NCBI GenBank assembly: GCA_963714975.1
Contig: CAVQQD010000002.1
Location: 512,001 to 576,000 of the forward strand
Length of the DNA: 64,000 nucleotides
From: an uncultured Gammaproteobacteria bacterium
GTDB lineage: Bacteria; Pseudomonadota; Gammaproteobacteria; JAURND01
Reading direction: 5' to 3'
The translations under genes were made by a program, and so were the position numbers. The notes under the pieces were generated by a model. That model was not told the DNA's origin. It made no database searches and saw nothing but the letters and a program-made list of their open reading frames with translations. Positions 10,556 through 59,572 of the stretch are shown here, piece after piece. Each line of letters opens with the position of its first letter. Within the stretch, counting starts at the first letter, position 1.

Positions 10556-10622
10556 CCCTCTCCCACAAATCCCCCCTACCCCCCTTTTTTAAAGGGGGGT
10601 AGGGGGGATTTGTGGGAGAGGG
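10556..10622. repeat. 32-bp perfect-stem palindrome: family D core inside family A arms; possible bidirectional terminator
   Basis: CCCTCTCCCACA-AATCCCCCCTACCCCCCTTT ttt AAAGGGGGGTAGGGGGGATT-TGTGGGAGAGGG between convergent genes. Confidence 0.9.
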
Positions 10623-10634
10623 CTTCCATAAAAG

Positions 10635-11624
10635 CTATAACGCAGACCTTAGGTTAGAAACTTCTAGTTGTTGAGTGGAGTTTATTTGGGACGGCGCTGT
10701 AGTTGCGACACTCAGCATCCGATCCTGCTCTTGAGTAGTACGGGCCATGGCTCTTGCTAATTCATGCTGAATGGCAGTTGCCTGAGGATCTTGCATGCGC
10801 TGTGCGGAATTATAGACAATGCTAGCAAGCCAGGCAGGAAACTCTGCATTTCCCAGGTTGCGAATGCTTATCGCCACGGTACCATTGGGGCCTGATAATG
10901 TAGCCAGGCCTTGCATGTAGTTAGTATAGCTTTGGGAATCTTTCGCCAATGCTGCTGCCTGAATAGCCATCGCATAGGTCCACATGACATTGGAAAGAGA
11001 AGCTTTAATCTCCCTCTCCCCCGAAGATGGGAGAGAGTTGAGGAGAGGGGGCTCATAGTGCCCGTGTTGATATTGGACTGCCGCTTGGAGTGCTGCTTTA
11101 TTGGCTTCATAGGCAGATTTATTATGCAATGCATAGTAAGAAAGCAGATAACCCAGGGCCCAACCAGCAAAAGCAGTATTTTCGCTATAATTTGCTTGAG
11201 TGGGAGCATACCGGGTTGAAGTGAGTGCAGGCCGCAAATCGGCTGCAATGCGGGCCGCTTCTTTTTCTTGACTGGCATGCATGGCAATTAATAATTGACG
11301 CCCTTTCATCCATAAACCAAATTCCAGACCTTCTTTGCCTTCAGCCAATAATGTTTTGAATTGCTCCGCAATTTTTGGATTCGTGTAATGCTTTGGATTA
11401 GCTAATAAAGGCATACTCATCTGGTAGGCAGTTTTAGCTTCTTGCAAATATTTTCCTGCTAATTCATTCACATTAACTGTCACTTGTTTGTGTTCTTGAA
11501 AATAACGGCTGCTCATGGGTTCCTCTGTTGTTGTTATGGATAAACTACTGATTGAATCAAGCCCCAGGAGAAATCCTGTGACCACGATCACGACTATGTG
11601 CATAATATCTCTCTTTAACTTCAT
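10635..11624 (-). CDS. Hypothetical protein (start 11624 or 11516) containing an in-frame family A insert
   Basis: Long Ala-rich ORF; PPLLNSLPSSGERE peptide. Confidence 0.65.
   Translation of the reverse strand: MKLKRDIMHIVVIVVTGFLLGLDSISSLSITTTEEPMSSRYFQEHKQVTVNVNELAGKYLQEAKTAYQMSMPLLANPKHYTNPKIAEQFKTLLAEGKEGLEFGLWMKGRQLLIAMHASQEKEAARIAADLRPALTSTRYAPTQANYSENTAFAGWALGYLLSYYALHNKSAYEANKAALQAAVQYQHGHYEPPLLNSLPSSGEREIKASLSNVMWTYAMAIQAAALAKDSQSYTNYMQGLATLSGPNGTVAISIRNLGNAEFPAWLASIVYNSAQRMQDPQATAIQHELARAMARTTQEQDRMLSVATTAPSQINSTQQLEVSNLRSAL
11011..11051. repeat. Family A element in frame within the hypothetical gene
   Basis: TCCCTCTCCCCCGAAGATGGGAGAGAGTTGAGGAGAGGGG, similar to the copy at 27043-27084. 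Confidence 0.75.
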
Positions 11625-11752
11625 CGCTATTTCGAGGTTGCTATTGTAGCACGGGGGCTTATAATGACAAGCTGCAGTGTGAGCGTGTCGAAGGGGCATC
11701 TTCTCCCAAGGGGAGAGGAAATAATGTTGATGATAATAATAGAGAGAGTGAT

Positions 11753-12559
11753 ATGAGAAGATACTTATTAGCTGGTTTGATGTTTGTCTGGTGTATTGGT
11801 TCTTTGGCAGAAGCGCCACACGGGCCGGCATGCCGTCCTGGAGAAATTACGACGGCAAATGATTACATGGCAATTCAGTGGTATCGTACTTCCGCAGAGA
11901 AAAATGCTTTATACCGCGAGATATTTTCCATGGCTGAGCAACAAGTTCGGGCAAAAAAACGCTTTTTGAAACTAGAGCCACAGCAATGGGGAGTTGTTTT
12001 TGATATTGATGATACGTTACTTGATAATAGCCTACACAGCTATGAAAATGCCTTGTACTGTGCTGGCCAACATTCTATTGGTTCAACCGCTTTCTTTGTG
12101 CGAGAAGTTTCCGTCCCGACACCGGGTGCTAAAAAAATTACCTGTGATATTCGCAAGATGGGTGGTTATGTGTCATTAGTGAGCAATCGTGATGGGAATC
12201 AGACCGATCCACGGACTGGAAAGAATTTACTCGACGCCACTGTAGAAAATTTAAAGAAAGCAGGCATTTGTTTTGATCAAGTAGTGCTGGCCAATTCAGT
12301 GAATGGGAATAAAAATCCGCGTTTCCAAGCCATTAACTCAGGCGAATATCCTGCGGATATGATTGTGACTCGCAAGCTGCCGGCGCATCGCGTCATCGCT
12401 TACTTTGGTGATAATATCCAGGACTTTCCCAATACATTTCAGCAAGAAATGAAGCAAGAAAATCCTGAAGGACAGGCTTATGCTAATTTTGGAATTTCTT
12501 ATTTTGTGTTGCCAAATCCACTTTACGGTAGTTGGCAGCATGCCACAAAAAAACCTTAA
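11753..12559 (+). CDS. HAD acid phosphatase / 5'-nucleotidase, e(P4)-like
   Basis: FDIDDTLLDNS, SNR, GDNIQDF and LPNPLYGSW motifs; signal peptide. Confidence 0.88.
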   Translation: MRRYLLAGLMFVWCIGSLAEAPHGPACRPGEITTANDYMAIQWYRTSAEKNALYREIFSMAEQQVRAKKRFLKLEPQQWGVVFDIDDTLLDNSLHSYENALYCAGQHSIGSTAFFVREVSVPTPGAKKITCDIRKMGGYVSLVSNRDGNQTDPRTGKNLLDATVENLKKAGICFDQVVLANSVNGNKNPRFQAINSGEYPADMIVTRKLPAHRVIAYFGDNIQDFPNTFQQEMKQENPEGQAYANFGISYFVLPNPLYGSWQHATKKP

Positions 12560-12568
12560 GGAGTATTT

Positions 12569-13090
12569 ATGGACACCCAGGAATTAAAAAATTTAATCCG
12601 CGAGATCCCCGATTTTCCAAAACCGGGTATCAACTTTTATGACATCACTACGCTACTTAAAGACAAGGTCGGATTACGAATGGCCATGGATGCTTTGGCT
12701 GTGCCCTATATTAAGCGACATGTCGATTGTGTCGTCGGTGTTGAAGCACGAGGTTTTATTTTTGCTTCTGCGATCGCTTATCAATTAAATGCGGGTTTTG
12801 TTCCAGCACGCAAAGCAAAAAAGCTCCCAGGTGAAGTCACACGGATGGTTTACGATTTAGAATATGGCGAAGAGATGTTAGAAATCCACAAAGATGCCAT
12901 TATTACCGGACAAAAGGTGTTAATTATTGATGACGTATTGGCGACTGGCGGCACGGCAGCTGCTACGATTGAGCTAGTAGAAATGCTTGGCGGGGAAGTA
13001 CTCGGGTTGGGGTTTCTGATGGAGCTTGGATTTTTAAATGGTCGAGATAAATTAAAAGGCTATGAAGTCTTTACCGTATTGCAGTACTAG
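12569..13090 (+). CDS. apt: Adenine phosphoribosyltransferase
   Basis: [15 protein letters not shown] and [11 protein letters not shown] motifs. Confidence 0.95.
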
Positions 13091-14470
13091 CTGTTGTTTA
13101 ATCTGCTCAAGACCTGGTTCAACCAGCAAGGGATAAGTTTCGCTAGGATGGGTAGCTTGGAAATCCGCTAATTGCTTTTGGCAGCGCTGCTGGATTTCGG
13201 GTAGGCTAGGTTTCTTATACACACACAGCCCTTGCTGGAAAATCGGTGTTAGTAAATCTTCATAATGCGTGGCAGATTGAACTAGTGGAATGTCGTCCGC
13301 ATTTAGGCCGGTAGGCAGATCGAAGAGTACATCCGCCAAATAGTTTTGATGCTGAAAATAACGGCGTACTTGCAAAATTCCTGGATAAGTTGCTTTGTTC
13401 GGTGAATCAGAGATTTTTATTTTATAATCCCAAGTGCCTGTGTCATTTGCGATGGCTGTTAGCTTATAAATCATATCCAAAGCAGGATGCTCATAGGCTG
13501 TTATTAGCCGAGTGCCTACTCCCCAACTATCAATGGGTGCGCCTTCTCCTTTTAACTTAGCAATACTGTATTCATCCAAATCGCCGCTGGCTAGGATTTT
13601 CGTTGCGGTAAATCCAGCAGCATCTAACCGTTGCCGGGCTGTGCGACTTAATTCTGCTAAATCACCTGAATCAAGGCGAATGGCTTGTAATGAGTAACCT
13701 TGGGCTTGCAATTGCTTACCGGTGTTAATGGCATTTTCAATGCCGGTAATGGTGTGGTAAGTATCAACGAGCAATGTTACCTGATCTGGAATGGCAGTAG
13801 CAAAACTGTTGAAAGCTGCAGCCTCATCTGCAAAAGCCATAATCCAGCTATGCGCCTGAGTTCCTTGCACCGGGATCCCATAAAGTTTACCAGCTAACAC
13901 ATTGGAGGTACTGTTGCATCCCCCAATATACGCAGCTCGGCTGGCGCTTAAGCCGCCGTTGGGACCTTGTGAGCGACGTAAGCCAAATTCGATTACTGTA
14001 TCTTGTTGCGCCGCTTGTCGCACGCGGCTGGCTTTAGTGGCAATTAAACTCGAAAATTGCAATAAATTAGTCAGCGCGGTTTCTAACAACTGGCATTGTA
14101 ACAGTGGCGCTTTTATTCTTAACAAAGGCTCATTAGGAAATACCGGGGTACCCTCGGGGATCACATCAATATCGCCAGTGAAGGCCAGTTGAGACAGATA
14201 GTGGAGGAATTCTTGGGTAAATAGCGGCTGGTGAGCACGATTTGTAAGTGAGCTTAGGTAATCAAGATCTGATTGGCTGAATTTCCAAGCGTGGATAAAA
14301 TCAATTACTAGTTCTAAGCCAGCACAAACGGTGTAGTTGCTGTTGAAGGGATTGTGACGAAAAAAATTTTGGAAGACGGCTTCTTGTTCGGCCTTACCCA
14401 AGCGCCAATAACCATAGGCCATAACTATTTCATATTGGTCAGTAAAGAGCGGGCTGTGGGCGGTTTCCAT
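13052..14470 (-). CDS. pncB: Nicotinate phosphoribosyltransferase
   Basis: LFTDQY, EFGLRR, GTQAHSW, LVDTY and IRLDSGD motifs. Confidence 0.92.
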
Positions 14471-14493
14471 TGGTATTCCTTTAGCAGCAGTCA

Positions 14494-14538
14494 CCCCTCA
14501 TCCGCCCTTCGGGCACCTTCTCCCACAGGGGGAGAAGG
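14494..14538. repeat. Family A element
   Basis: CCCCTCATCCGCCCTTCGGGCACCTTCTCCCACAGGGGGAGAAGG between ffh and pncB. Confidence 0.88.
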
Positions 14539-14549
14539 AATTATTCAGG

Positions 14550-15908
14550 CTATTCAGGAAGATCAGGTGGCAACATTCCCTTCATATTTTGCATCATGCG
14601 ATTCATTCCGCCACCTTTCATTTTCTTCAGCATTTTTTGTGTTTGTAAGAAATGCTTGATGAGGCGATTGACATCTTGGACTTGGGTGCCAGAGCCATTA
14701 GCAATTCGGCGTTTCCGGGAGCCATTAATTAAATCAATATAATGTCTTTCTTCCTGGGTCATGGAATTAATAATGGCTTCCATTTGCGTGACAAATTTAT
14801 CGTTCATCATATTTTTGGCCGCTTGAGGAATTTGTCCCATGCCCGGAATTTTTCCCATAATGCTGGCGATGCCTCCTAACTTGCGCATTTGCTGCAATTG
14901 TTCGCGAAAATCTTCTAGATCAAATTCCTTGCCTTTTTTAAATTTTTTCTCAAGCTTCTCTGCTTGTTTTTGATCCATCTTCCGCTGAGCTTCTTCGACC
15001 AAGGTGAGAATATCACCCATGCCTAAAATACGCGAAGCCATCCGTTCAGGATGAAAGGGCTCAAAAGCATCAATTTTTTCACCAACGCCCACAAACTTAA
15101 TCGGCTTACCGGTAATGGACTTAATGGAAAGAGCGGCGCCTCCGCGCGCATCGCCATCTGTTTTGGTGAGGATTACGCCAGTCAGGGTTAATGCATCATT
15201 AAATGCTTTGGCAGTATTCGCCGCGTCTTGGCCTGTCATACTATCAACGACAAATAAGGTTTCTGTCGGTTTAATTGCGGTATGAATTTTTTGGATTTCC
15301 GCCATCATCTCTTGATCAATATGTAAGCGGCCAGCGGTATCGATAATCACAACATCGAGCAGGTGGGTTTTAGCATATTGCACTGCGCCAGTAGCAATGG
15401 CGATGGGAGATTGGGAAGGGTTACTGGCAAAAAACTCTACGCCTATTTGCGTAGCTAAAACTTTTAACTGTTCGATGGCCGCGGGTCGATAAATATCAGC
15501 GCTGGCAATTAATACGGATTTTTCATTTCTGGTTTTTAATAAATTAGCCAATTTAGCCACAGTCGTGGTTTTACCGGAACCTTGCAGTCCCGCCATTAAG
15601 ATGACGATCGGGGCTTGGGCTTTAAGATTGAGATCGGTTAAGCTGGGTCCTAGCAGGTCAACTAAGGCGTCATTGACGACCTTGATTAGAGCATCGCCTG
15701 GCTTTATGCTGCGGATGACTTCTTTGCCAACCGCCTTACTGCGAATGGTCTCGGTAAAGGTTTTAACCACCGGCAGCGCAACATCGGCATCCAATAGCGC
15801 AGAGCGGACTTCCTTTAGGGTCTCCTGGATGTTTTCCTCAGTTAAGCGCCCTTTGCCAGTCAGGCGTTGCATGGTTTTGGTCAATTTACTCGATAATGTT
15901 TCAAACAT
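14550..15908 (-). CDS. ffh: Signal recognition particle protein
   Basis: GLQGSGKTT, DTAGR and TKTDGDARGGAALS motifs; Met-rich M domain. Confidence 0.96.
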   Translation of the reverse strand: MFETLSSKLTKTMQRLTGKGRLTEENIQETLKEVRSALLDADVALPVVKTFTETIRSKAVGKEVIRSIKPGDALIKVVNDALVDLLGPSLTDLNLKAQAPIVILMAGLQGSGKTTTVAKLANLLKTRNEKSVLIASADIYRPAAIEQLKVLATQIGVEFFASNPSQSPIAIATGAVQYAKTHLLDVVIIDTAGRLHIDQEMMAEIQKIHTAIKPTETLFVVDSMTGQDAANTAKAFNDALTLTGVILTKTDGDARGGAALSIKSITGKPIKFVGVGEKIDAFEPFHPERMASRILGMGDILTLVEEAQRKMDQKQAEKLEKKFKKGKEFDLEDFREQLQQMRKLGGIASIMGKIPGMGQIPQAAKNMMNDKFVTQMEAIINSMTQEERHYIDLINGSRKRRIANGSGTQVQDVNRLIKHFLQTQKMLKKMKGGGMNRMMQNMKGMLPPDLPE

Positions 15909-16004
15909 ACAAATAATGAATCCTGTCTGGTATACTTTTGTAACGATTAGTGGAACCGCGCCAAGTATACCCCTAACTCCACTCAGGAAAAAGGCCCAAA
16001 TAAC

Positions 16005-16439
16005 ATGCAAAATGTGCTAACAGCTTTAGGCGTCAAAGAGCTTATTCATGTTTTATCTGCAATGGCCGCTTTTAGCGTTATCTGTCTTGGCACTCTGCAA
16101 GCCATATTTGTTGCGATTCAAGAACATTTGCTGCGTTATAATTATGCGGGTACGGTGATCAAAAAATTGCCTCCGTTAGAGAGGATGGAGACAATCCTAT
16201 TTCAACTCATTTGGCTAGGATTTATTCTGCTAAGTTTGGTTCTAATTAGCAGCTTATTCTTTTTCTATCCAGTTTTTTCCCCTTTCTTGTTAGAAAAAAC
16301 CTTATTAGCAAGTTTTGCTTGGATGATTTATGCTATTTTGTTATTAGGTCGTTATTTCGTTGGTTGGCGAGGTCGGAAGATTATTTATTACACATTATGT
16401 GGGTTTGCCTTATTGGTTATTGTTTATTTTTGTCAGTAG
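16005..16439 (+). CDS. Cytochrome c assembly (CcsA/YpjD-like) membrane protein, short form
   Basis: LPPLERME and GWRG motifs; divergent from ffh as for ypjD. Confidence 0.75.
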   Translation: MQNVLTALGVKELIHVLSAMAAFSVICLGTLQAIFVAIQEHLLRYNYAGTVIKKLPPLERMETILFQLIWLGFILLSLVLISSLFFFYPVFSPFLLEKTLLASFAWMIYAILLLGRYFVGWRGRKIIYYTLCGFALLVIVYFCQ

Positions 16440-16474
16440 TTTTGTTTAGACTGTAGAAATGGGAGCTTTTATAC

Positions 16475-17734
16475 ATGTATTTGCTGTTCCTCGGTTTGGG
16501 TTTCTTAATTTCCGTCTCTAGTTTTTTTTCAGGATCAGAAACAGCCATGATGGCAATTAATCGTTATCGCTTACGGCACTTAGTCAGTAAGCAGCATCCT
16601 GCAGCCATGCGCGTCAGTCGTTTACTGGAACGACCTGATCGATTGCTGGGAGTCGTGTTGATCGGTAATACTTTCACCAATATGCTTATTTCTGCGGTAG
16701 CCAGCTTAGTAGCCATTCATTTGTTCGGACCAGTTGCTGTTATTCCTGCTTCCATTGCGATGGCGCTGATCGTACTTATTTTTGCCGAGGTGGTTCCTAA
16801 AACCTTAGCTGCACTACGCCCGGAAAGTTTTGCGTTCCCTGCTTCAGGACTACTTGCAATATTATTAACTGTGTTATACCCCCTGGTTTGGTGTGCTAAT
16901 GCAATTTCCAATGGATTCTTGCGTTTATTCAATGTGAATATAAAATTGTACGGGAAGGTGCTGGACCATTTAACTGGGGAAGAAGTGCGCACGATTGTGC
17001 ATGAAGCAACCCACCAATTGACTACGGGTTCCAAGCATATGATGTTAGGAGTTCTAGATTTAAGTGCTATTACGGTGGATGATGTTTCAGTGCCGCGCAA
17101 TGATATTGTCGGGATTGACCTTGAGGATTCTTGGCCGGTGATATTAGAACAACTAGCCGCTTCAGAACATACGCGATTACCGGTATTTAACAGCAATATC
17201 GATCAAGTCCAGGGAGTTTTGCATGTTCGTAAGGCTTTAAATTTAGCGACGCAAGGGCAATTGAGCAAAACAACATTAATGAACAATTTGGAAGATGTTT
17301 ATTTTATTCCCGAAGGAACCCCCCTGAATGTGCAATTATTAAATTTTCGGCAAGCAAAACGTCGCATCGGCTTGGTGGTTGATGAATATGGAGATATTCA
17401 GGGACTGATTACTTTAGACGATATACTTGAGGAGATTGTTGGAGAATATACGACTAATTTAGCGGCATCTTATAAAAATATCCAACGGCAACCGGATGGG
17501 AGTTATTTGATTGATGGTGGAGCAAGCATCCGAGAGCTCAATCGGCGTTTTCAGTGGGGGCTACCCACCAGCGGTCCCAAAACCTTAAGTGGGCTGATTG
17601 TTGAATATCTGGAAATGATTCCTACTGCTGGAGTGGGCTTGCGCATCAGCGGTTATCCGATAGAAGTTTTAGAAATGGAAGAAAATACCATTAAGGTGGT
17701 GAGGATTTGGCCAGAACGGCGCCGTTATGAATAA
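16475..17734 (+). CDS. HlyC/CorC (CNNM-CBS) family transporter
   Basis: FFSGSETA, AEVVPK, VDEYGD and CorC-domain motifs. Confidence 0.9.
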   Translation: MYLLFLGLGFLISVSSFFSGSETAMMAINRYRLRHLVSKQHPAAMRVSRLLERPDRLLGVVLIGNTFTNMLISAVASLVAIHLFGPVAVIPASIAMALIVLIFAEVVPKTLAALRPESFAFPASGLLAILLTVLYPLVWCANAISNGFLRLFNVNIKLYGKVLDHLTGEEVRTIVHEATHQLTTGSKHMMLGVLDLSAITVDDVSVPRNDIVGIDLEDSWPVILEQLAASEHTRLPVFNSNIDQVQGVLHVRKALNLATQGQLSKTTLMNNLEDVYFIPEGTPLNVQLLNFRQAKRRIGLVVDEYGDIQGLITLDDILEEIVGEYTTNLAASYKNIQRQPDGSYLIDGGASIRELNRRFQWGLPTSGPKTLSGLIVEYLEMIPTAGVGLRISGYPIEVLEMEENTIKVVRIWPERRRYE

Positions 17735-18185
17735 TTTGTTCGAGCTGTTACTCGTTTTATTTATTGTCAGTATTTTACTGATGGCTGCTGTACCTTCCGG
17801 ACGGAAATTTTTAGTAGAAAAAACTACGGCTACCGCGATTAATTCTTTAGTGGCTGGTTTAAATTTTGCTCGTAGTGAGGCCATTCACCGTAGTGAAAAA
17901 CTGCTATTTTGTAAGAGTTCTAATCACAAAACTTGTGGTGGAAATTGGGCCGATGGGCAGCTGGTCGTGAACCACTCAGGAGTAGTTTTGAAAGTGTTAC
18001 CAGCAATCCCCAAAGCTGCGCATTTAGCGTGGAATAGTAGCGGCGGTAAAGACGATTTTCTGGAGTGGTTGCCTACAGGCTATACCAATGGTCAACGTGG
18101 CACTTTTTACTATACTGCGCCTGGAAGTCAAGCCAATTCACAGGCGATCGTAGTTTTAAACACCGGGAGAATTAGTGTGCAATGA
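17727..18185 (+). CDS. FimT/GspH-like minor pilin
   Basis: LFELLLVL hydrophobic helix; ARSEAI; terminal GR motif. Confidence 0.78.
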   Translation: MNNLFELLLVLFIVSILLMAAVPSGRKFLVEKTTATAINSLVAGLNFARSEAIHRSEKLLFCKSSNHKTCGGNWADGQLVVNHSGVVLKVLPAIPKAAHLAWNSSGGKDDFLEWLPTGYTNGQRGTFYYTAPGSQANSQAIVVLNTGRISVQ

Positions 18186-19335
18186 ATTCTAGGAGAGGGG
18201 AGGTGCTGTCCAGAGCATTTTTAATCTCATCCATCATCCCATAAAAATCTGGGTTGTAGTTTAAGCGTTGAATTACATGATGAAGTAAATTGGTCGGCTG
18301 CAGTGATCCAAGATAAATGTCGCCTAATTTGGGCGGTACGGAATGGGGATAATGGATGAATTCTTGATAATCTCCTTGTCTGCCATAATGAGGATTCTCG
18401 GGAGAATTGGGGATGCTTGTATGAGCAAAATCTAAGATTTTTTCTTCGGGAAAATAACTGCTGCGCTCAATGATACGTGGATCTGGCAGATGGAGTGGTT
18501 TTTTTGTATAAACTAGTAAACGATTTTGCGGGTTTTGATAGTGGCTAAAAAAATCATAAACAGCCTTGGTGACAATGACTTCATCCTCATGACTGAGAGC
18601 GATAAATAGTTGGGGTAGCTGAGGATTTAATGCCAGTAATCGGCGAGTTCTTTGGATTAATCGATAGCATTGATAACCCGCATTAAAGCAAAAGGACTCA
18701 TATTTAGCATAATTTTTGAGTGGTGATCGTTTGTACCATTTAAGTGCATTAAAAGCCCAATCAATTAAGTGGAACCAAACGCTTAAACGAATGATTCCCT
18801 CTCCATAGAATTTTAAGGCGGGAGCAAATAGGATTAAGCCTTGGATATGGCTATTATTGATAGCTTGGTCGAGGGCCAAAATTGCCCCTGTTGAATGTCC
18901 CCCTATATAGACCTGATCTACAACTTTCGTCAATTCTTTGATCCCATAGTGGGCTGCCTTAATCCATTCTTGATAACGAATATTAAGTAAATCGCCAGGT
19001 ACGGTACCATGACCTGGAAGCAATAGCCCATACACTAAAAAGCCTTGCTCTTGCAATTGACGACCTACATCGCGCATACCAAAGGGAGAATCATAAAGAC
19101 CATGAATTAATAAAATGCCACGACGTATTGAAGATGATTTTGTGGGCTCAAAGATAAAGGGGCTATTTGCTGCTATGATATGCTCCTGGTGAATATTTTC
19201 ATGCGATGATAAATCCAGGCGAGCTTGGCGGATCATTTTTTGAGTTTCCGCGATATAGGAAGAAAAAGATAATCCTTCACCAATAAATTGGTTATTTAGG
19301 CCTGAGGGTTTTAGTAATCGCGGATCATAGTACAT
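18172..19335 (-). CDS. Alpha/beta hydrolase (carboxylesterase-like)
   Basis: LIHGLYDSP, LLPGHG and GHSTG nucleophile motifs. Confidence 0.85.
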   Translation of the reverse strand: MYYDPRLLKPSGLNNQFIGEGLSFSSYIAETQKMIRQARLDLSSHENIHQEHIIAANSPFIFEPTKSSSIRRGILLIHGLYDSPFGMRDVGRQLQEQGFLVYGLLLPGHGTVPGDLLNIRYQEWIKAAHYGIKELTKVVDQVYIGGHSTGAILALDQAINNSHIQGLILFAPALKFYGEGIIRLSVWFHLIDWAFNALKWYKRSPLKNYAKYESFCFNAGYQCYRLIQRTRRLLALNPQLPQLFIALSHEDEVIVTKAVYDFFSHYQNPQNRLLVYTKKPLHLPDPRIIERSSYFPEEKILDFAHTSIPNSPENPHYGRQGDYQEFIHYPHSVPPKLGDIYLGSLQPTNLLHHVIQRLNYNPDFYGMMDEIKNALDSTSPLLEFIAH

Positions 19336-19439
19336 GCGGCTATCATAGCAAAAATTAACTAGCAATTCCCACTGCTTCAGAGCTACAGGACCTGATAACC
19401 TTGAAGTGATATAGTACTTCACAGCCTGGAGAGTTTGAA

Positions 19440-20849
19440 ATGGTGTTTAATCGTGATTATTTGTCCCAGATATTGCAGCAATTAAATTTACCACCTCAGA
19501 TTATGGTTGCTTATAGCGGCGGCTTAGATTCCCACGCGCTGTTATATGCCCTAGTTGAGTTACGCAACTTAAATCCAGGACTTTCCTTGCGGGCAGTGCA
19601 TATCGATCATGGCCTTAGTGCGCGTTCCGTCGAATGGAGTGCGCATTGTGTTAGGGTATGTCAACAATTAGCAATCGAATGTATCATCAAGAAAATCCAA
19701 GTTATAGCCGCCGAGGATAGTTTGGAAGAAGTGGCGCGAAATTTAAGATATGCCGCTTTCGCTGAAATAATGATGCCCGGCGAATGTCTGGTGACGGCAC
19801 ACACCGTGGATGATCAAGCCGAAACCGTCTTGCTGCAATTATTGCGAGGAGCAGGCATTCCAGGTTTGGCAGCAATGCCCGTGGTTAAACCATTGGGACC
19901 GGGTAAATTAGCTCGCCCGCTATTATCCATAAGTCGAGCAGCATTACATACTTTTGCGTGCGAAAAGCAATTACGTTGGATTGAAGATGAAAGTAACTTA
20001 AATACTAATTTTGATCGCAATTTTATTCGCCATCAGGTCTTGCCGATACTACGAAAGCGTTGGCCCAGTACGGCTAAAGTAATCGCCCGAACCGCGCGCC
20101 ATTGTGCAGAAGCCAATGATTTACTAGCCGAACTTGCCACATCTGCAATTCCCGCTGAAGCCCTGTTCCCCGACGGGTCCTGCCGCGCGGGCAACCCGCC
20201 GTGCTCGCACACTGCGCGCGGCGTTGTTGCCCCACGCGTCACCCGTCGGCCAAAGTACTATAGAGCGGAAATTGCTGATTCCATACTGGGCGGAAGGAGG
20301 GGAAATTTCGCGTTAACCATCTCATGCTTACAATCATTTGATCCTAGTCAGCAAAAAAATGTATTGCGGGTGTGGCTGCGATCTCAGCAGTTTCGGGTGC
20401 CAAGTGAGGTGAAATTACATCAATTACAACAAGACTTTTTACACTCCAAAGCGAGTGCAACGCCCTATATGCAATGGGCGGGAGTAGAGGTGCGACGTTT
20501 TAAGGATAATTTATACGCCATGCCACCCTTGTCCGCTCATGATCCCGGAATAATCCTAACTTGGGATTTGCACCAGCCCCTGGCTTTACCCTCAGGTATC
20601 GGCGTTTTGCAACCGCACATGCTGGCAGCAGAAGGTGTCGATCTCTCAAATGGTTCTTTAGTGACGATCCGTTTTCGGCAGGGGGGCGAACGGTTTAAGC
20701 CAGCAGGCCGTTTTGGGTCTCATCCTTTAAAAAAACTTTTTCAAGAATGGCAAGTACCGCCTTGGCTGCGTGATCGTATACCGCTCATTTATTTGGAAGG
20801 ACATTTGGTCGCCGTGATTTGGCGGCCTTTTATTAGGGATGTGGAGTAA
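19440..20849 (+). CDS. tilS: tRNA(Ile)-lysidine synthetase with an in-frame repeat insert of about 44 aa
   Basis: AYSGGLDS, AHTVDDQAET, RPLL and VPPWLRDRIPL motifs. Confidence 0.93.
   Translation: MVFNRDYLSQILQQLNLPPQIMVAYSGGLDSHALLYALVELRNLNPGLSLRAVHIDHGLSARSVEWSAHCVRVCQQLAIECIIKKIQVIAAEDSLEEVARNLRYAAFAEIMMPGECLVTAHTVDDQAETVLLQLLRGAGIPGLAAMPVVKPLGPGKLARPLLSISRAALHTFACEKQLRWIEDESNLNTNFDRNFIRHQVLPILRKRWPSTAKVIARTARHCAEANDLLAELATSAIPAEALFPDGSCRAGNPPCSHTARGVVAPRVTRRPKYYRAEIADSILGGRRGNFALTISCLQSFDPSQQKNVLRVWLRSQQFRVPSEVKLHQLQQDFLHSKASATPYMQWAGVEVRRFKDNLYAMPPLSAHDPGIILTWDLHQPLALPSGIGVLQPHMLAAEGVDLSNGSLVTIRFRQGGERFKPAGRFGSHPLKKLFQEWQVPPWLRDRIPLIYLEGHLVAVIWRPFIRDVE
20145..20275. repeat. Family E element (GCAATT...AATTGC ends) in frame in tilS
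   Basis: GC-rich island; shares GTTGCCCCACGCGTCACCCGTCGG and a second block with the nlpD insert. Confidence 0.85.
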
Positions 20850-21126: not shown

Positions 21127-21144
21127 TTCAATTGTAATTGTTAG

Positions 21145-21417: not shown

Positions 21418-21522
21418 TTCACTCACCTCACAAAAAAGAATAGCCCTATGTGGGATATAATTCAAGTGGGAAATAAGAAAATGTCGGAACTCAGTGAAAA
21501 TGTCCCCATAAAAACTCAATAG

Positions 21523-21555
21523 AAATCCCCCTTTGAAAAAGGGGGGGTAGGGATT
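21523..21555. repeat. Family D element
   Basis: AATCCCCCTTTGAAAAAGGGGGGGTAGGGATT. Confidence 0.8.
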
Positions 21556-22837: not shown

Positions 22838-22908
22838 TAAGCAATCCATACCTCGGTTTGTAGATCAACTAGGTCCTCGTTTTTTCGTAACCATCCACCA
22901 CGATTTTG

Positions 22909-23053
22909 CCTCTCCCCTTGTGGGAGAGGCCGCCGCGCCGTAAGGCGCGCGGGTGAGGGGTAGGCAGCATTTAGCTAATAAAATGCTTCTTGCTGATTTC
23001 AAGGTTACCCCTCATCCGCCCTTTCGGGCACCTTCTCCCACAAGGGGAGAAGG
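22909..23053. repeat. Family A inverted doublet (REPIN-like)
   Basis: CCTCTCCCCTTGTGGGAGAGG...GGGTGAGGGG, spacer, CCCCTCATCC...CCTTCTCCCACAAGGGGAGAAGG. Confidence 0.9.
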
Positions 23054-23102
23054 ATCAATAGACTGGGTCTGCTCTTGTTGTTAAAATGCCAGCTGTTCCT
23101 GA

Positions 23103-24938
<1,836 letters not shown>

Positions 24939-24942
24939 TTTC

Positions 24943-25761
24943 GTGAAAATCGGTCCCTATCAGGTAGGTATCCAACATCCCTTTTTTTTAATTGCGGGTC
25001 CTTGTGTCATTGAAAGCGAGCAGCTCGCTTTAGATACGGCGGCAGAATTGCAAGCAGTAACCCAAAGTTTGAATATTCCTTTTATTTATAAGTCTTCTTT
25101 TGATAAGGCAAATCGTACCTCAAATAAAAGTTTTCGTGGTTTGGGATTTGAAAAAGGCTTGCAAATCCTAGAAAAAGTGAAAAATAGCTTAGGGGTTTTG
25201 GTGCTAACCGATGTACACGAGGATACGCCTTTGCAGGAAGTGGCGCAGGTGGTGGATGTGTTACAGACCCCAGCCTTTTTATGTCGGCAAACTAATTTTA
25301 TTCAAAAAGTAGCTGCTTGCGGCAAGCCCATGAATATCAAAAAGGGACAATTTTTGGCGCCGGGGGACATGTCCCATGTGGTTGAAAAAGCCCAGGCGAT
25401 GGGGAATCAACAAATAATGGTTTGTGAACGTGGGGTGTCATTTGGGTATAACAATTTAGTTGCGGATATGCGTTCTTTAATGATCATGCGCCAGTGTGGT
25501 GTTCCTGTGGTGTTTGATGCTACCCATTCAGTGCAACTTCCAGGAGGAGCAGGAGGTAAATCCGGTGGGCAGCGCGAATTTATCCCTGCCTTAGCACGAG
25601 CTGCTATGGCGGTTGGGATTGCAGGGATATTTATGGAAACTCATCCCGACCCGGATAAAGCTTTAAGTGATGGCCCTAATTCATGGCCCTTAAATAAAAT
25701 GCCTGCATTATTGAAAACATTGCAAGCTATTGATCAGATAGTTAAGGCGAAAGAAGGATAA
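24943..25761 (+). CDS. kdsA: KDO-8-phosphate synthase
   Basis: [21 protein letters not shown] and DATHSVQ motifs. Confidence 0.95.
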
Positions 25762-27042
<1,281 letters not shown>

Positions 27043-27084
27043 TCCCCTTTCCCCCGAAGGTGGGAGAGGGTTAGGGAGAGGGGG
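27043..27084. repeat. Family A element just upstream of ftsB
   Basis: TCCCCTTTCCCCCGAAGGTGGGAGAGGGTTAGGGAGAGGGGG. Confidence 0.8.
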
Positions 27085-27085
27085 A

Positions 27086-27364
27086 GTGAAACCAGCAACG
27101 ATCTTTCTAGTTTCGTTAGTAATTTTACTTGCTGTATTGCAATATAAACTTTGGGTCTCTCCCGAGGGGGTCCCCCAATTTTGGAAATTAAAACATAGCA
27201 TTCAGCAAGTACATAAAGAAAATGCAGTTCTCCAAGAAAGAAATGCTTGGGTAGTGAGGGAGGTCAAGGAATTAAAGCATGGTATGGACGGAGTTGAAGA
27301 ACGCGCTCGTGATGATTTTGGTTTAACTAAACAAGGGGAAGTTTTTTATCAGATTGTTGAATAA
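27086..27364 (+). CDS. ftsB: Cell division protein FtsB
   Basis: TM plus LQYKLW, coiled coil, EERARDDFGL..GEVFY; eno-ftsB-ispD synteny; likely GTG start. Confidence 0.88.
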   Translation: MKPATIFLVSLVILLAVLQYKLWVSPEGVPQFWKLKHSIQQVHKENAVLQERNAWVVREVKELKHGMDGVEERARDDFGLTKQGEVFYQIVE

Positions 27365-28103
27365 TTCCTTGGCCCCCCTCACCCTAACCCTCTCCCACGA
27401 GGGGAGAGGGGATTTTATAAAATACTGGGCTATTATTCCTGCTGCAGGTCTTGGTAGACGGTTTGGTTCTGACACGCCGAAACAATACCTAATGCTCAAG
27501 GATAAAACTATCTTAGAACATACCCTCAATGTTCTCTTATCCTATCCTTTGTTTCAAAAAATAGTCGTTGTGCTAGCTTCAGCAGATCCTTATTGGTCAA
27601 CATTAACATTACCCAGTCGCACTAAAGAGCGGATTATCTGCGTTACTGGGGGCCAAGAGCGTTACATTTCGGTATATCAAGGTCTGGAAGTCCTTGATAA
27701 AATAGCCGCTCCTGAGGATTGGGTACTGGTGCATGATGCGGTGCGCCCTTGTCTTAACCATGCTGATTTAGATCGGCTTATCCAGGCATTAAAAGATCAT
27801 CCCGTAGGAGGGCTACTTGGCATTCCAGCGCAGGACAGTTTAAAAGCAGTTGATCCACAGCAGAATGTGCAGCACACCGTAGATCGATCCAACATTTGGC
27901 AAGCGCAATCACCACAAATGTTTCGGTTCAATAAATTAAAGCAAGCTTTGGAAAAAGTGATTCGAGAACAACAGTCAGTGACTGATGATGCGGGGGCCAT
28001 TCAGCTATTAGGCGAATCACCCCTGATGGTTGAAGGTAGTCGAGAGAACATAAAAATAACACGTCCCGAAGATTTGTTACTGGCAGAGAAGTTTATGCTA
28101 TAA
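27354..28103 (+). CDS. ispD: 2-C-methyl-D-erythritol 4-phosphate cytidylyltransferase (start uncertain)
   Basis: IPAAGLGRRF, PKQY, VHDAVRP and NIKITRPED motifs. Confidence 0.92.
   Translation: MLNNSLAPLTLTLSHEGRGDFIKYWAIIPAAGLGRRFGSDTPKQYLMLKDKTILEHTLNVLLSYPLFQKIVVVLASADPYWSTLTLPSRTKERIICVTGGQERYISVYQGLEVLDKIAAPEDWVLVHDAVRPCLNHADLDRLIQALKDHPVGGLLGIPAQDSLKAVDPQQNVQHTVDRSNIWQAQSPQMFRFNKLKQALEKVIREQQSVTDDAGAIQLLGESPLMVEGSRENIKITRPEDLLLAEKFML
27373..27411. repeat. Family A element at the ispD 5' end
   Basis: CCCCCCTCACCCTAACCCTCTCCCACGAGGGGAGAGGGG. Confidence 0.85.
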
Positions 28104-28245
28104 ATCCCCTCTCCCGCTTGCGAGAGCGGGTGCTGAAGGGGAACGTCGTCCCGGCATGGATGCCGGGATCCAGGGCATAAGGACATGAAACTTTAACGTC
28201 CTTGTTAACTGGATCCCGGCATCCTGCCGGGACGACGGTTGGGGG
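28104..28245. repeat. Family C element (28144-28237) flanked by family A remnants
   Basis: CGTCGTCCCGGCATGGATGCCGGGATCCAG...CTGGATCCCGGCATCCTGCCGGGACGACG. Confidence 0.9.
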
Positions 28246-28251
28246 AACATT

Positions 28252-28761
28252 ATGCGCATTGGCCATGGTTTTGATATTCATTGCTTCGAGCCAGAAAAAC
28301 CTCTGATGTTAGGTGGCGTTCATATTCCTTTCCCGCAAGGGATGAAAGCCCATTCCGATGGTGATGTTCTCTTACATGCCCTCTGCGATGCTTTGTTGGG
28401 TGCCTTAGCTTTGGGCGATATTGGCCAACATTTTCCCGATACTGACCCTGAGTTTCGTTTGGCGGATAGCCGTCAGCTTTTGAGAAATGTGCTAGTATTG
28501 ATAGAGAGTCATGGTTATGTTGTTGAAAATATAGATGCGACAGTGATTGCCCAAGTCCCAAAACTCTCGCCTTATATTGAGCCAATGCGAGTCAATATAG
28601 CCCATGATTTAACAATTGACACGCAGTGTGTCAGCATTAAGGCAACTACGATGGAAAAACTGGGTCCGATTGGAGCAGGTCAAGCCATTGCAGTGCACGC
28701 CGTTGTTTTGTTAAAACGTAAGACAGAGGGTGTGCCAAAGAATGAACATACTCGTTTGTAA
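28252..28761 (+). CDS. ispF: MECDP synthase
   Basis: MRIGHGFDIH, HSDGDVLLHA and KATT motifs. Confidence 0.96.
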   Translation: MRIGHGFDIHCFEPEKPLMLGGVHIPFPQGMKAHSDGDVLLHALCDALLGALALGDIGQHFPDTDPEFRLADSRQLLRNVLVLIESHGYVVENIDATVIAQVPKLSPYIEPMRVNIAHDLTIDTQCVSIKATTMEKLGPIGAGQAIAVHAVVLLKRKTEGVPKNEHTRL

Positions 28762-29512
28762 TGATGATGGAGTCTATGCAGAGGGAATGCGCTTATTAGC
28801 AAATTCTCTGCGTAAAATTGGCAAAGTGACCATTATTGCGCCAGATCGTAATCGTAGTGGTGCTAGCAACTCCTTAACTCTTGACCATCCCGTGCGGGTA
28901 AAAGCCTTGGAAGAAAACGTTATCAGTGTTGAAGGCACTCCCACCGACTGCGTGCATTTGGCGCTAACTGGCTTATTAAAAGAACCGCAAGATATCGTTG
29001 TTTCAGGTGTCAATGAGGGTTCGAATTTAGGTGACGACGTGTTGTATTCAGGCACCGTAGCGGCTGCTATTGAGGGACGCTTTTTAGGATTACCGGCAAT
29101 CGCAATTTCCCTGGGCGCCCAAGGAGGTGTGAATGCCTTGACTTCCTTGTATTATGAAACTGCTTGTCATGTGGCTTCTCGTCTAGTGCAGCATCTCAAT
29201 GCCGATCCCTTACCAGCTACTACCATTCTGAATATCAATGTGCCTAATGTGCCATTACAAGAATTAGTTGGGTATCAGGTGACTCGCTTAGGGACGCGCC
29301 ATCAGGCCGAACCGACTATCCGTCAGCTAGATCCTCGAGGGCGTCCGGTGTATTGGGTCGGCCCCCCAGGTTTAGAGCAAGATGCAGGGCCAGGAACTGA
29401 TTTTCATGCTATTCACTCCCGATGTGTATCAATCACGCCTTTGCAGGTTGATTTCACTCACTATCAAGTGTTCGATCAACTCGTTAAATGGATCGATGGA
29501 CTAAAAGAATAA
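28742..29512 (+). CDS. surE: 5'/3'-nucleotidase SurE
   Basis: NDDG, SGASNS, GTPTDCV and YSGTVAAA motifs. Confidence 0.95.
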   Translation: MNILVCNDDGVYAEGMRLLANSLRKIGKVTIIAPDRNRSGASNSLTLDHPVRVKALEENVISVEGTPTDCVHLALTGLLKEPQDIVVSGVNEGSNLGDDVLYSGTVAAAIEGRFLGLPAIAISLGAQGGVNALTSLYYETACHVASRLVQHLNADPLPATTILNINVPNVPLQELVGYQVTRLGTRHQAEPTIRQLDPRGRPVYWVGPPGLEQDAGPGTDFHAIHSRCVSITPLQVDFTHYQVFDQLVKWIDGLKE

Positions 29513-29534
29513 TCTATGTAAATATGCCGCATAA

Positions 29535-29617
29535 AATCCCTCTGCTAATAAACCTCGGCATTGTTCCTTCTCCCCTTGTGGGAGAAGGTGGCCGCAGGCC
29601 GGATGAGGGGAGAGGGG
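29535..29617. repeat. Composite family A element
   Basis: 45-bp core 29566-29610 is the exact reverse complement of 59601-59645; flanks are also similar. Confidence 0.9.
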
Positions 29618-29621
29618 TAAT

Positions 29622-30206
29622 ATGCGTCTTTTTTCTAAATTATATAATCTGGTGATGAGTTGGTCTCAAAATCGTCATGCCCCTTATTACTTAGGTGCGG
29701 TCAGTTTTATTGAGTCTTCCCTATTTCCTATTCCCCCTGATGTCATGTTAGCGCCGATGGTGATGGCCAAACCTGAGTCTGCTTGGCGCTATGCAGCATT
29801 GACAACTATCGCTTCGGTGTTGGGGGCGTTGTTTGGCTATGTATTAGGCATGTTTTTTTTCCATTGGATCATGCCTTATTTTGAGCATTTGGGTTATCTC
29901 TCTGCCTACCAGCATGTGCAAACATGGTTTGCCGAATGGGGGGGCTGGGTTTTACTCGTGGTGGGTTTTACGCCCATTCCGTTTAAACTATTTACCATTG
30001 GCGCGGGAGCTCTGCATATGAGCTTGCTACCTTTTACTGTAGGGGTCTTTGTGGGAAGGGGTATGCGTTTTTATTTGGTATCTGGGTTTATGAAGTGGGG
30101 TGGAGCTAGCATGGATGCATTACTGCGACGCAGTGTTGATTGGATTGGCTGGAGTGTAGTTGGTCTGATTATCGCAGGATATAGCATTTATGCCCTTTGG
30201 AAATAA
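29622..30206 (+). CDS. YqaA / DedA (VTT) family membrane protein
   Basis: SFIESSLFPIPPD and FTPIPFK motifs. Confidence 0.88.
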   Translation: MRLFSKLYNLVMSWSQNRHAPYYLGAVSFIESSLFPIPPDVMLAPMVMAKPESAWRYAALTTIASVLGALFGYVLGMFFFHWIMPYFEHLGYLSAYQHVQTWFAEWGGWVLLVVGFTPIPFKLFTIGAGALHMSLLPFTVGVFVGRGMRFYLVSGFMKWGGASMDALLRRSVDWIGWSVVGLIIAGYSIYALWK

Positions 30207-30984
30207 ATTTAAAGCGGGAATTGCGGTTCTAATCCTAAGTTTATTGACACCGGCCTGCACGCTAACTCCCACGGAGGAGGCGCCGATCATTGATGGCTGG
30301 CAACAGCCGGCATTCAGTGGGGATTATCGAGTGCAGCCTGGGGACACTATTTATTCCATTGCTTGGTCTTTTGGGATGGATTATCGTGCTATTGCTAAGT
30401 TCAATCAGCTCACTGAGCCTTACCACTTACATCCTGGACAGTGGTTGTATATGGCTTCTCGTCCCGCAATTTCTGCTGCAGCTCTGATCCCCGAGGGTGT
30501 TGCCCCACGCGTCACCCGTCGGAGCACGGTGGGGTGCCGCAGCGGCAGGACCCGTCGGGCATCAGGGCTGCAGCGGGAATTGCTGAAGGATCCAGTGCAC
30601 AGAGATGTGAAAGCGTCGTCCTGGCAATGGCCAACGGTTGGTAAAGTGGTACGTGGTTATTCACCTGCCTTTGGCGGCAATCGTGGTTTGGATATTAAGG
30701 GTAAGTTTAATCAACCGGTGTTAGCCGCTGCGGCAGGTAAAGTCGTTTATACCGGGTCAAGTATGCCGGGTTATGGTAATTTAATTATCATTAAGCATAA
30801 TGATAATGATTTGAGCGCTTATGCGTTTAATAAGACCCTGATGGTGACGGAAGGCCAGATAGTGAAGACGGGTCAGACGATCGCGATGATGGGGAAAAAT
30901 GAGCGTGGTGAAACCATGTTGCATTTTGAAATTCGTCGAAGTGGCAAGCCTGTAGATCCTAGGAGATACTTAAAGAATGATTGA
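30190..30984 (+). CDS. nlpD: LysM + M23 lipoprotein NlpD; linker made of repeat elements
   Basis: Lipobox-like TPAC; LysM YRVQPGDT; WQWP...GYGNLIIIKH...LHFEIR. Confidence 0.88.
   Translation: MPFGNKFKAGIAVLILSLLTPACTLTPTEEAPIIDGWQQPAFSGDYRVQPGDTIYSIAWSFGMDYRAIAKFNQLTEPYHLHPGQWLYMASRPAISAAALIPEGVAPRVTRRSTVGCRSGRTRRASGLQRELLKDPVHRDVKASSWQWPTVGKVVRGYSPAFGGNRGLDIKGKFNQPVLAAAAGKVVYTGSSMPGYGNLIIIKHNDNDLSAYAFNKTLMVTEGQIVKTGQTIAMMGKNERGETMLHFEIRRSGKPVDPRRYLKND
30459..30627. repeat. Family E element (30466-30583) within family C fragments, in frame in nlpD
   Basis: TCGTCCC[GCAATT...AATTGC]TGAAGGATCCAGTGCACAGAGATGTGAAAG-CGTCGTCCTGGCA. Confidence 0.8.
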
Positions 30985-32905
30985 GCGCATCCAACGATTA
31001 GATACTTTATTAGCAAACCAAATTGCTGCCGGAGAAGTGGTGAGCCGTCCTGCCTCTGCGTTGAAAGAGTTAGTTGAAAATAGCTTGGATGCGGGGGCAA
31101 CGCAGATTGAAGTGACGTTAGAAAAAGGCGGTATTCAATTAATTCGCGTCCGGGATAATGGTCGGGGGATTCATAAAGAAGATTTACCGTTGGCTTTAAG
31201 CCGACACGCCACCAGTAAAATTTCCACGCTGGAAGAGTTAGAATGCATCCAATCCTTAGGTTTTCGTGGAGAAGCTTTGGCGAGCATTGCTTCGGTATCA
31301 CGTTTGGTTTTAACTTCGCGCCAAGCCAATGAAACTTTGGCCTGGCAAATTAAAGCGGAAGGTCGGACGGCAGAAATTGAATTTAATCCGGTATCTCATC
31401 CCATGGGCAGCACTATTGAAGTGCGCGATTTATTTTTTAATACACCAGCGCGGCGAAAATTTTTACGCTCAGAAAAAACCGAATATTCCCACTGTGAGGA
31501 ATTGATTAATCGCATTGCATTAGCTTCTTTTCATGTTGCTTTTGTGCTGAAACATAATCAAAAAACTATTTTGCAATTGCCTCCCGCTATTTCTCAAGCA
31601 GAACAAGAGCAACGCGTGGGCAAATTGTGCGGAAATTTTTTTATCGAACAAGCCAAGGCTATACAGATTGGAAACCATTCACCCGTCGTCCCGCTCCCGC
31701 GACTTGATCGCGGGATTGTCCGCGGGATCCAGGATCCAGAAAGCAGGGATGCAGGATTTTCATTAGCGGGTTGGTTGGGCTTGCCGATTATTTCGCGCGC
31801 GCAGGCTGATTTGCAATATTTCTATGTCAATGGGCGCATGGTCCGTGATAAGTTAATTACTCACGCCATTAAACAAGCGTACCACGATGTAATGTATGGT
31901 CATCGCTATCCCGCCTATGTGTTATTTCTTAGTTTGGATCCAACTTTGGTTGATGTTAATGTGCACCCCACAAAATCCGAGGTGCGGTTTCGTGACAGTC
32001 GCTTTATTTATGATTTTTTATTTAGTCGCATCCATGAATCTTTGGCGCAAAAAGAGCAAGTCACCGCTGGAATTTCTGCTATAGCCGATTCAATATTCGC
32101 GCCAGAACCATGGGGGATGCAGCATCAATTGCAGATTAGTGAAGCAAAAGCAGACTACTTAGCGTACCAGGAAATCCCCCCTACCCCTCTTTTTCAAAGG
32201 GGGGGCGATAAAATTCCCCCCTTTTTCGAGGATGGGGATCAAGAAATTCCCCCCTTTGAAAAAGGGGGGGTAGAGGGGATTTCCTGCAGTTTAGCTCCCA
32301 GCCCCGTGCGGGAACGACTTGAGGGAGCTCTAGGCTATGCTCTTGGCCAATTACATGGCATCTTCATCCTAGCCGAAAATCAACAAGGCTTAGTGATTGT
32401 CGACATGCACGCCGCTCACGAACGTATTTTGTATGAAGAATTAAAGCTAGCTCATCAGCGCGAGAAAATTGTGCGCCAAACCTTGTTAATTCCACTGACT
32501 TTATCATTGACGACGCGAGAGGCGGACTATGTGCAAGAACAACAAGCTTTGTTTGCTGAGCTTGGGTTTGAACTCGAGCGAATTAGCCCAACGAGTTGTA
32601 TTATTCGCCAGGTTCCTGTGTTATTGAAACAGGTGGATGTTTTGCAGTTAATCCGTGATGTGATAGCAGATTTTCTAACTCTGGAGAAAAGCCAGCGCAT
32701 CGAACAACAATTCCATAAAGTTTTGGCGACTATTGCCTGCCACAGCTCGGCACGGGCTCATCGCCGTCTTACCCTCCCGGAAATGAATGCACTGTTGCGG
32801 CAACTGGAACAGACCGACCGCAGCGGTCAGTGCAATCATGGCCGTCCTACGATCAGGCAGTTTTCCCTGGAAGAATTGGATAAGTTATTTTTAAGGGGAA
32901 GATAA
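30977..32905 (+). CDS. mutL: DNA mismatch repair protein MutL with in-frame repeat inserts
   Basis: NQIAAGEV, GFRGEALASI, DVNVHPTK, DMHAAHER and CNHGRP motifs. Confidence 0.96.
   Translation: MIERIQRLDTLLANQIAAGEVVSRPASALKELVENSLDAGATQIEVTLEKGGIQLIRVRDNGRGIHKEDLPLALSRHATSKISTLEELECIQSLGFRGEALASIASVSRLVLTSRQANETLAWQIKAEGRTAEIEFNPVSHPMGSTIEVRDLFFNTPARRKFLRSEKTEYSHCEELINRIALASFHVAFVLKHNQKTILQLPPAISQAEQEQRVGKLCGNFFIEQAKAIQIGNHSPVVPLPRLDRGIVRGIQDPESRDAGFSLAGWLGLPIISRAQADLQYFYVNGRMVRDKLITHAIKQAYHDVMYGHRYPAYVLFLSLDPTLVDVNVHPTKSEVRFRDSRFIYDFLFSRIHESLAQKEQVTAGISAIADSIFAPEPWGMQHQLQISEAKADYLAYQEIPPTPLFQRGGDKIPPFFEDGDQEIPPFEKGGVEGISCSLAPSPVRERLEGALGYALGQLHGIFILAENQQGLVIVDMHAAHERILYEELKLAHQREKIVRQTLLIPLTLSLTTREADYVQEQQALFAELGFELERISPTSCIIRQVPVLLKQVDVLQLIRDVIADFLTLEKSQRIEQQFHKVLATIACHSSARAHRRLTLPEMNALLRQLEQTDRSGQCNHGRPTIRQFSLEELDKLFLRGR
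31684..31756. repeat. Family C (self-nested) in frame in mutL
   Basis: CGTCGTCCCGC-TCCCGCGACTTGATCGCGGGA-TTGTCCGCGGGATCCAG; peptide VVPLPRLDRGIVRGIQ. Confidence 0.82.
32168..32286. repeat. Family D triple hairpin in frame in the mutL linker
   Basis: CAGGAAATCCCCCCTACCCC...GGGGTAGAGGGGATTTCCTG; peptide EIPPTPLFQRGG...IPPFEKGGVEGIS. Confidence 0.88.
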
Positions 32906-59566: not shown

Positions 59567-59572
59567 TATACA

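Follow-up and report, generated by a model that had tools for sequence, protein, structure and literature searches.

How do short palindromic repeats of unrelated sequence come to lie inside one another, with one repeat standing where the hairpin loop of another should be? The question is raised by a 64,000-nt stretch of DNA (hereafter the window; G000:C2:512001-576000) from an uncultured gammaproteobacterium, whose 2.56-Mb genome of 43% GC is held on three contigs, C1 to C3. No named organism has a PyrG more than 73% identical to the one encoded here, and we therefore regard the organism as deep-branching. A first-pass annotation of the window had listed seven sites at which repeats appeared to be inserted into the hairpin loops of other repeats, and had proposed that insertion is guided by structure rather than by sequence, so that one shared mechanism might act across families. 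Our analysis confirms this picture in part. Repeats do lie nested throughout the genome, far more often than chance allows, and there is a true preference for hairpin tips. Part of the pattern comes from amplification of whole composites and perhaps from survivorship.

The families of short GC-rich palindromic repeats were defined through k-mer and seed analyses. A1 is laid out as a tail, a mini-hairpin and a main hairpin, CCTTCTCCC-ACAA-GGGAGAAGG, and A2 as three arms in the order left-TAA-left-filling-right; both are untagged, and three-armed forms exist. B is a TGTC-tagged repetitive extragenic palindrome (REP), and C is a CGTC-tagged REP found mostly in head-to-head doublets. D is an untagged hairpin of a C run and a G run that in most cases has a third arm. 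E, which measures about 130 nt, resembles a miniature inverted-repeat transposable element (MITE) and has the terminal inverted repeats GCAATTCCCGC / GCGGAAATTGC. G is likewise MITE-like, its ends being inverted repeats that start CTATCCGATGCACA. Genome-wide, 221 A arm pairs have the canonical spacing and 34 have the 26-nt spacing of A2, while seed matches come to about 51 for B and 36-63 for C, with doublets in both. By these counts A, B and C behave as REPs do, that is, as imperfect palindromes of 20-40 bp in high copy and in inverted doublets. The GTAG/CGTC(TGTC) tag is present in B and C and absent from A and D.

Nesting across the repeat families

The proposal that nesting runs across families is borne out by the whole genome. 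A perfect flanking inverted repeat of at least 12 bp surrounds 23 of the 468 repeat islands, compared with 5 of 3000 control intervals, far beyond chance. The flanking arms are stems of known families in 21 of these 23 cases and unique sequence in only two. Concentric nesting involves at least six families and reaches a depth of four levels. Four layers, A>G>E>D, are found at C3:55070-55385, the order A2>D>A2 is found at C3:339721-339898, and G surrounds a C doublet at C1:120940-121107; each of these three loci folds as a single hairpin. D lies inside A-type (A1) loops in four cases with four different junctions, it also lies in A2 frames, and A2 reciprocally lies in D loops. At least seven copies of E have D at their centre. 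B doublets occupy the centres of A, A2 and C doublets, and one C doublet sits in an A loop. As judged by eye, nested D copies are symmetric whereas free ones are three-armed and asymmetric, and D beside broken A arms is rare (about three copies).

The contents of the A arms are equally varied. Thirty A arm pairs have non-canonical fillings, many token patterns are complex, and 59 three-arm A units share one common frame with at least seven different tip fillings: 33 are B-like with three further variants, four are A3, four are short loops, two are D, two are of a 31-nt type, one is a B doublet, and there are others besides. In related genera, too, the A arms enclose quite different inner modules.

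The seven sites in the window comprise three tip nestings, two junctions outside any loop and two ordinary multi-copy units. At 10556..10622 (no strand assigned), between convergent open reading frames (ORFs), D does sit in the loop of an A hairpin: an outer A-type stem of 9 bp plus AC/GT encloses a symmetric D unit. The whole forms a single perfect hairpin with a 32-bp stem (dG -43.2 kcal/mol, z = -12.2, 0 of 200 shuffles as stable), and the junction occurs nowhere else in the genome. Nesting of C in a C loop, annotated in the mutL ORF at 31684-31732, is also confirmed: a second C variant has a 9-nt loop, and the C-type hairpin 31695-31715 occupies it. This C-in-C composite (31682..31745, plus strand) recurs at several other loci and constitutes a family, with 10 matches to its left junction and 7 to its right. 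MutL of the metagenome relative L019 (57% identical, 642 aa) is without exactly the 25 aa that the composite encodes. An in-frame palindrome absent from the orthologue is the mark of Rickettsia palindromic elements, to which we liken the mutL insert by its behaviour and not by sequence kinship.

The third tip nesting, in the nlpD ORF (30459..30596, plus strand), is less simple than had been thought. E (30466-30583) does stand within one C unit whose outer ends, TCGTCCC (30459-30465) and GGATCCAG (30588-30595), lie on either side of it, and this junction is unique, but E has replaced the inner stem and the loop together, not the loop alone. The NlpD linker is too variable for such a comparison. 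The pyrG, nlpD and mutL ORFs all remain open across their repeat elements. With such in-frame composites in housekeeping genes (mutL, nlpD), nesting sets both the length and the content of the added peptide segments.

Both junctions outside loops were found only once. At 28101..28246 (minus strand), where C had been described as lying between A remnants, a head-to-head C doublet (28144-28237) indeed splits an A1 unit, but the break falls outside any loop, between the mini-hairpin and the tail, with GGGGAAC on either side. At the 3' end of the pyrG ORF (24786..24891, plus strand), B had been taken to interrupt an A element. What is found is a fusion at a run of C, where an A-type tail passes into B units and a B doublet with no A right arm after them. 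Nor do the supposed A-in-A composites at 29535 and 59573 survive. They are the ordinary long form of A1, which has 9 matches to the 3'-part pattern and is made up of pyrimidine/purine outer arms, an AT-rich hairpin, the main hairpin, the mini-hairpin and a tail. The copy at 29532..29623 (minus strand; catalogued as family D11) is a multi-copy unit with no nesting event, and the copy at 59563..59680 (plus strand) is the same long form.

Other features of the window touch the same families. A simple A hairpin, outside the earlier list, lies inside the 3' side of an A1 mini-hairpin at 7351..7392 (plus strand) and is flanked by the direct repeat TCGGC. An un-nested E copy with its terminal inverted repeats lies at 20145..20275 (plus strand). 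The three-arm A unit at 27040..27085 (minus strand) is 'empty', having a short loop where 36 other copies have a B-like inner hairpin. The convergent ORFs around 10556-10622 end at 10519 and 10635, and the centre of that hairpin, with its T run and A run, may serve as a two-way terminator. Two direct pyrimidine arms with TA/TAA between them, then a loop and one purine arm, make up the layout common to A2 and D, examples being 27040-27085 and the D copies at 32172-32270. The stem CCCGAGC/GCGAGGG, with two adjacent G-A mismatches, is common to B (for example at 24821-24848) and the A2 inner hairpin. The B loop forms the motif GCGAAGC, which we take to be an unusually stable DNA mini-hairpin. In the related genomes G002 and G003 (for example at loci L076 and L077), which belong to other genera of the family, A-type arms stand round an inner module of 32-38 nt unlike the fillings here, with 74 and 87 pattern matches per strand.

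The G element at hairpin tips

The G element has 51 ends in the genome, which form 12 pairs, and a terminal repeat of at least 14 nt. In 3 of the 12 pairs the target is perfectly duplicated in direct orientation, over 8, 9 and 10 bp (CTTATAGA, CTCGTCCAG, CTCCCGTTGT), and three more pairs have imperfect duplications. G thereby combines the terminal inverted repeats and the target duplication of a MITE; E has terminal repeats, and no clear target duplication was seen. No autonomous partner of G was found. By regular expression, 13 of the 51 G ends adjoin an A hairpin (18 by eye), set against a background of 0.68% (P=2.5e-17). The geometry is constant in kind: an entire A left arm and the loop come first, and the right arm then contributes 0, 3 or 5 nt, with the duplication spanning half an arm and the loop. 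A 10-bp duplication of that extent gives just this at the two ends of an element. The A loops at G sites vary (ACAAG, CCAAG, CTTGT, TAGT, TCAGG and others), and separate A copies were therefore entered. Two more G ends adjoin the left arm and loop of D, whose sequence is unrelated to A. G amounts to proof of genuine insertion at hairpin tips, and it settles in which direction these events ran.

The claim that insertion is guided by structure fares better in one respect than in another. Tips are strongly over-used in hosts of unrelated sequence, but several of the sites are amplified units and two lie outside loops. We infer recognition of structure as opposed to sequence, two possibilities that sequence alone does not separate. 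If tip targeting is structural, it would constitute a general rule for where selfish DNA lands without wrecking its host element. Survivorship may also form part of the tip bias, in that only tip insertions keep the host stem intact and copyable.

Breakpoints were also catalogued across the repeats as a whole. An automatic catalogue was made by blastn of the 468 islands against each other, with chained high-scoring segment pairs and loops called from minimum-free-energy folds. Uncollapsed, it placed 151 of 319 minimal events in loops where 118.7 were expected. The enrichment of breakpoints at loops for which the first-pass annotation had proposed to test did not appear once copies were collapsed to event types. 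The automatic test is flawed, by false events that span two adjacent copies and by minimum-free-energy pairing between doublet halves, and we rely on it neither way. With the A1 model, about 7 of 10 valid event types fell in two loops compared with 28% expected (P=0.007), in a sample that is small and hand-curated. Partial nhmmer hits were rejected as breakpoint evidence, being confounded by palindromic cross-strand hits.

Routes to a nested palindrome

The reading that we favour, and to which we give about half of our confidence, is that the hairpin tip (the dyad centre) is the favoured and best-tolerated landing place for several small elements that are moved by different enzymes. Insertion at the tip of a resident hairpin would leave the host stem intact and would be best tolerated there. 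A composite whose outer stem is kept would remain copyable and could found a new sub-family, and it is because such outer-stem composites stay copyable that both Russian-doll loci and multi-copy composites would arise. G would be moved by a transposase making staggered cuts of 8-10 bp across half arm and loop. ISx, an IS110-type insertion sequence (IS), would enter the end of E by site-specific recombination, and the REP-like units would use a duplication-free route that replaces the host tip at mirror-image positions. The single shared mechanism proposed earlier does not accommodate these differences: G duplicates its target, ISx hits a fixed end of E, and the REP-like guests replace tips without duplication. 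These guests (D, B, C, A2) show no target duplications and take the place of the host loop, whose remaining bases are often mirrored, as in AC..GT at 10556 and CTTG..CAAG at C3:652175; one guest, at C2:79898, splits the loop cleanly, C from AAG, without mirroring.

Several results weigh against a preference for tips. Collapsed to event types, the automatic catalogue has 60 of 184 events in loops with 54.6 expected (P=0.15), and full A2 units used as queries yield only one event at the A2 inner apex. Events away from tips occur at pyrG, 28104, C1:320437, C3:101543 and C3:120186; they are few, and several have flanking direct repeats of 4-6 nt. Roughly every second G element is found in ordinary DNA without a hairpin, and the target of ISx is the end of an element, not a tip. 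The curated counts depend on intact host arms, so that tip events are more readily detected. Finally, insertion and loss of the REP-like guests become separable only with an empty orthologous allele, and we infer both the direction of these events and the enzyme. A search of 30 relatives with DNA of the 10556 locus matched only D itself and left the flanks unmatched, and a metagenome scan with SurE returned relatives of at most 74% amino-acid identity; neither yielded an empty allele.

It is with the REP-like guests that a route without transposition deserves attention. Template switching or recombination between hairpins could make composites if tips were swapped or mirrored during replication or repair, whether by cassette exchange at shared CCC/GGG stem bases or by quasi-palindrome correction. 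We think this rather unlikely, although the guests' lack of target duplications, replaced host loops and mirrored leftover bases all agree with it, as does the symmetry (by eye) of nested D copies when set beside the asymmetry of free ones. The pyrG junction lies within a C run, the short direct repeats at non-tip events are as expected from slippage, and an E copy at C3:685537-685670 lies between the arms of a perfect inverted repeat whose sequence, about 22-24 bp long, is unique. Yet template switching leaves the 8-10 bp direct duplications and the terminal repeats of G unexplained, mirror-copied flanks are rare (2 of the 23 are unique), and the clean loop split at C2:79898 is not what it predicts. 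The same E copy, with its mirrored unique flanks, is what speaks for palindromes that grow inside out, fold-back priming copying the flank so that the outer layers are the younger mirror copies. This we consider highly improbable. The outer layers are family stems in 21 of 23 cases and the G duplications are direct, not inverted (three perfect cases). We reject fold-back growth as the main route, since the flanking inverted repeat consists of unique sequence in only 2 of the 23 islands. At the C3:685537 flank itself, a 14-mer is confined to the locus, one per side, as if mirror-copied.

Amplification is a different matter, because it certainly operates alongside insertion in some measure. The A2 composite is present in 36 exact copies in this genome and its exact pattern in none of 300 other genomes of the class, a 24-nt insert in the A1 mini-hairpin is found in 12 copies that all have one junction, and the C-in-C and E::D composites are also multi-copy. 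To judge by these repeated junctions, much of the nesting is inherited through copying of whole composites and not through recurrent insertion. The further step, that composites are ancestral consensus units merely amplified with no recurrent loop insertion, was the outcome that the first-pass annotation had set against its own proposal. It holds for part of the observation, and as the whole account we regard it as unlikely. A2, C-in-C (10 left and 7 right junction matches) and the A1 long form (9 matches) do look like uniform units, and the 12 inserts of one junction and the E copies with a central D point the same way. However, the junctions at 10556 and nlpD are unique, D entered A-type loops at four different junctions, G is found in many A copies with differing loops and its own duplications, and three- and four-level nests exist. 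Insertion at tips, followed by copying of whatever kept its stem, remains the account that we prefer.

Candidate enzymes and known systems

A 1.48-kb G-armed element encodes an IS110-family transposase (PF01548 E=4.5e-19, PF02371 E=1.1e-13). The genome holds nine IS110-family genes in two groups. The second of these is ISx, all four copies of which (C3:520393-521871, C2:68808, C3:402878 and C3:459880) lie directly after CAGCAATT, a position that is always the same within the left end of E; one copy is inside a G-armed E. ISx thus joins a DEDD transposase to one fixed target position, as IS110/IS1111 elements do. An Rfam search of the ISx locus gave no match. The other IS110-family group has five copies elsewhere. 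No REP-associated tyrosine transposase (RAYT; Y1, PF01797) flanked by repeats was found in this genome, which is 93.75% complete. Three PF01797 hits were rejected as RAYT because all belong to a single IS200/IS605-type element, present at C2:509016-509378 (some 2.6-3 kb upstream of the window), C2:659197 and C1:106334; the copies share identical flanks, and none adjoins A-D repeats. In two of the three copies a TAG stop interrupts the transposase at the same codon.

For the A family we propose a different candidate. An intact DUF559 gene lies outside the window at C2:141307-141645 and encodes a protein of 113 aa (PF04480 1e-42), whose nearest solved relative is 3HRL, an 'endonuclease-like protein'. 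In the surrounding region (C2:141146-141845) two inverted A2 units stand upstream of the gene and another three follow it downstream; the TAA linker of A2 serves as the gene's stop codon. Eight loci with DUF559 homologues (L071-L078), from six related genomes, were examined. Six of them have A-family units on both sides and one has them on one side, D-like hairpins adjoin the remaining one, and every locus has the tip filling of its own genome. This bracketing fits an enzyme that would read the arms and ignore the tip, and it makes the DUF559 protein, a PD-(D/E)XK, Vsr-like nuclease, a candidate enzyme for the A family. One may go further and suppose that the nuclease mobilises A-type repeats, recognising the arms or the fold and cutting the stem, with tips swapped or filled as cassettes. 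We offer this as a speculation that is quite probably wrong. If true, it would be a route of structure-directed DNA integration and would explain the concentric nesting of unrelated palindromes. A literature search on DUF559 with palindromic repeats, judged by titles, found nothing relevant.

Beyond the single locus, the spread of REP-like repeats without a RAYT and the origin of mosaic palindromes are little-understood questions for which this genome offers a compact system: one three-armed A frame with many fillings, G insertions at tips, and a candidate nuclease bracketed by repeats in several genera. Parts of the picture were already known from those portions of the literature that bear on it, namely REPs in palindromes (2013, briefly), REPs as IS targets, and a stem-loop gate for one IS110 element (2026). 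A targeted search, with supplementary files outside its scope, found nothing on nested REPs inserted into loops. The 2013 observation concerns GTAG/CGTC REPs inside 'target palindromes' of Anabaena variabilis, Thermomicrobium roseum and Halothiobacillus neapolitanus (Di Nocera, De Gregorio, Rocco 2013, PMC3733652), noted in one paragraph that calls the matter uninvestigated. B and C here fit the TGTC/CGTC-tagged type of that paper. As that paragraph presents it, however, the arrangement involves one host per species, with no multi-level nesting, no target-duplicating element and no linked enzyme.

The gate comes from an experimental study in which a target stem-loop gates an IS110 element and adds specificity beyond base pairing (Na et al. 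2026, 10.64898/2026.03.19.712850). That gate serves one bridge-RNA-guided IS, whereas there is no sign here that G or the REP-like units use such a gate. Small palindromic REPs are, according to Tobes and Pareja (2006, PMC1525189), specific landing sites for several IS families (IS1397/ISKpn1, IS621), each at a fixed position. Compared with what is set out there, the guests in this genome are mostly miniature palindromic repeats instead of full IS, and the nesting is reciprocal and up to four levels deep.

The two closest parallels concern the enzymes. The DUF559 locus is like the 'REPtron' of REP/REPIN (REP doublets) and RAYT in having a small nuclease-type gene bracketed by inverted copies of the repeat that it is presumed to move, and unlike it in that the protein is a PD-(D/E)XK DUF559 nuclease instead of a Y1 HUH transposase and the A units are without the GTAG/CGTC tag. 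In Coxiella burnetii, according to the section of Wachter et al. (2018, PMC5896051) that deals with it, IS1111 lies inside the GTAG REP of QMITE2. ISx repeats this theme as an IS110/IS1111-family element at a fixed point inside a MITE of a gammaproteobacterium. The sequences differ from those given there, however, ISx stands at the end of its MITE, and that MITE, E, is itself nested in G and plays host to D.

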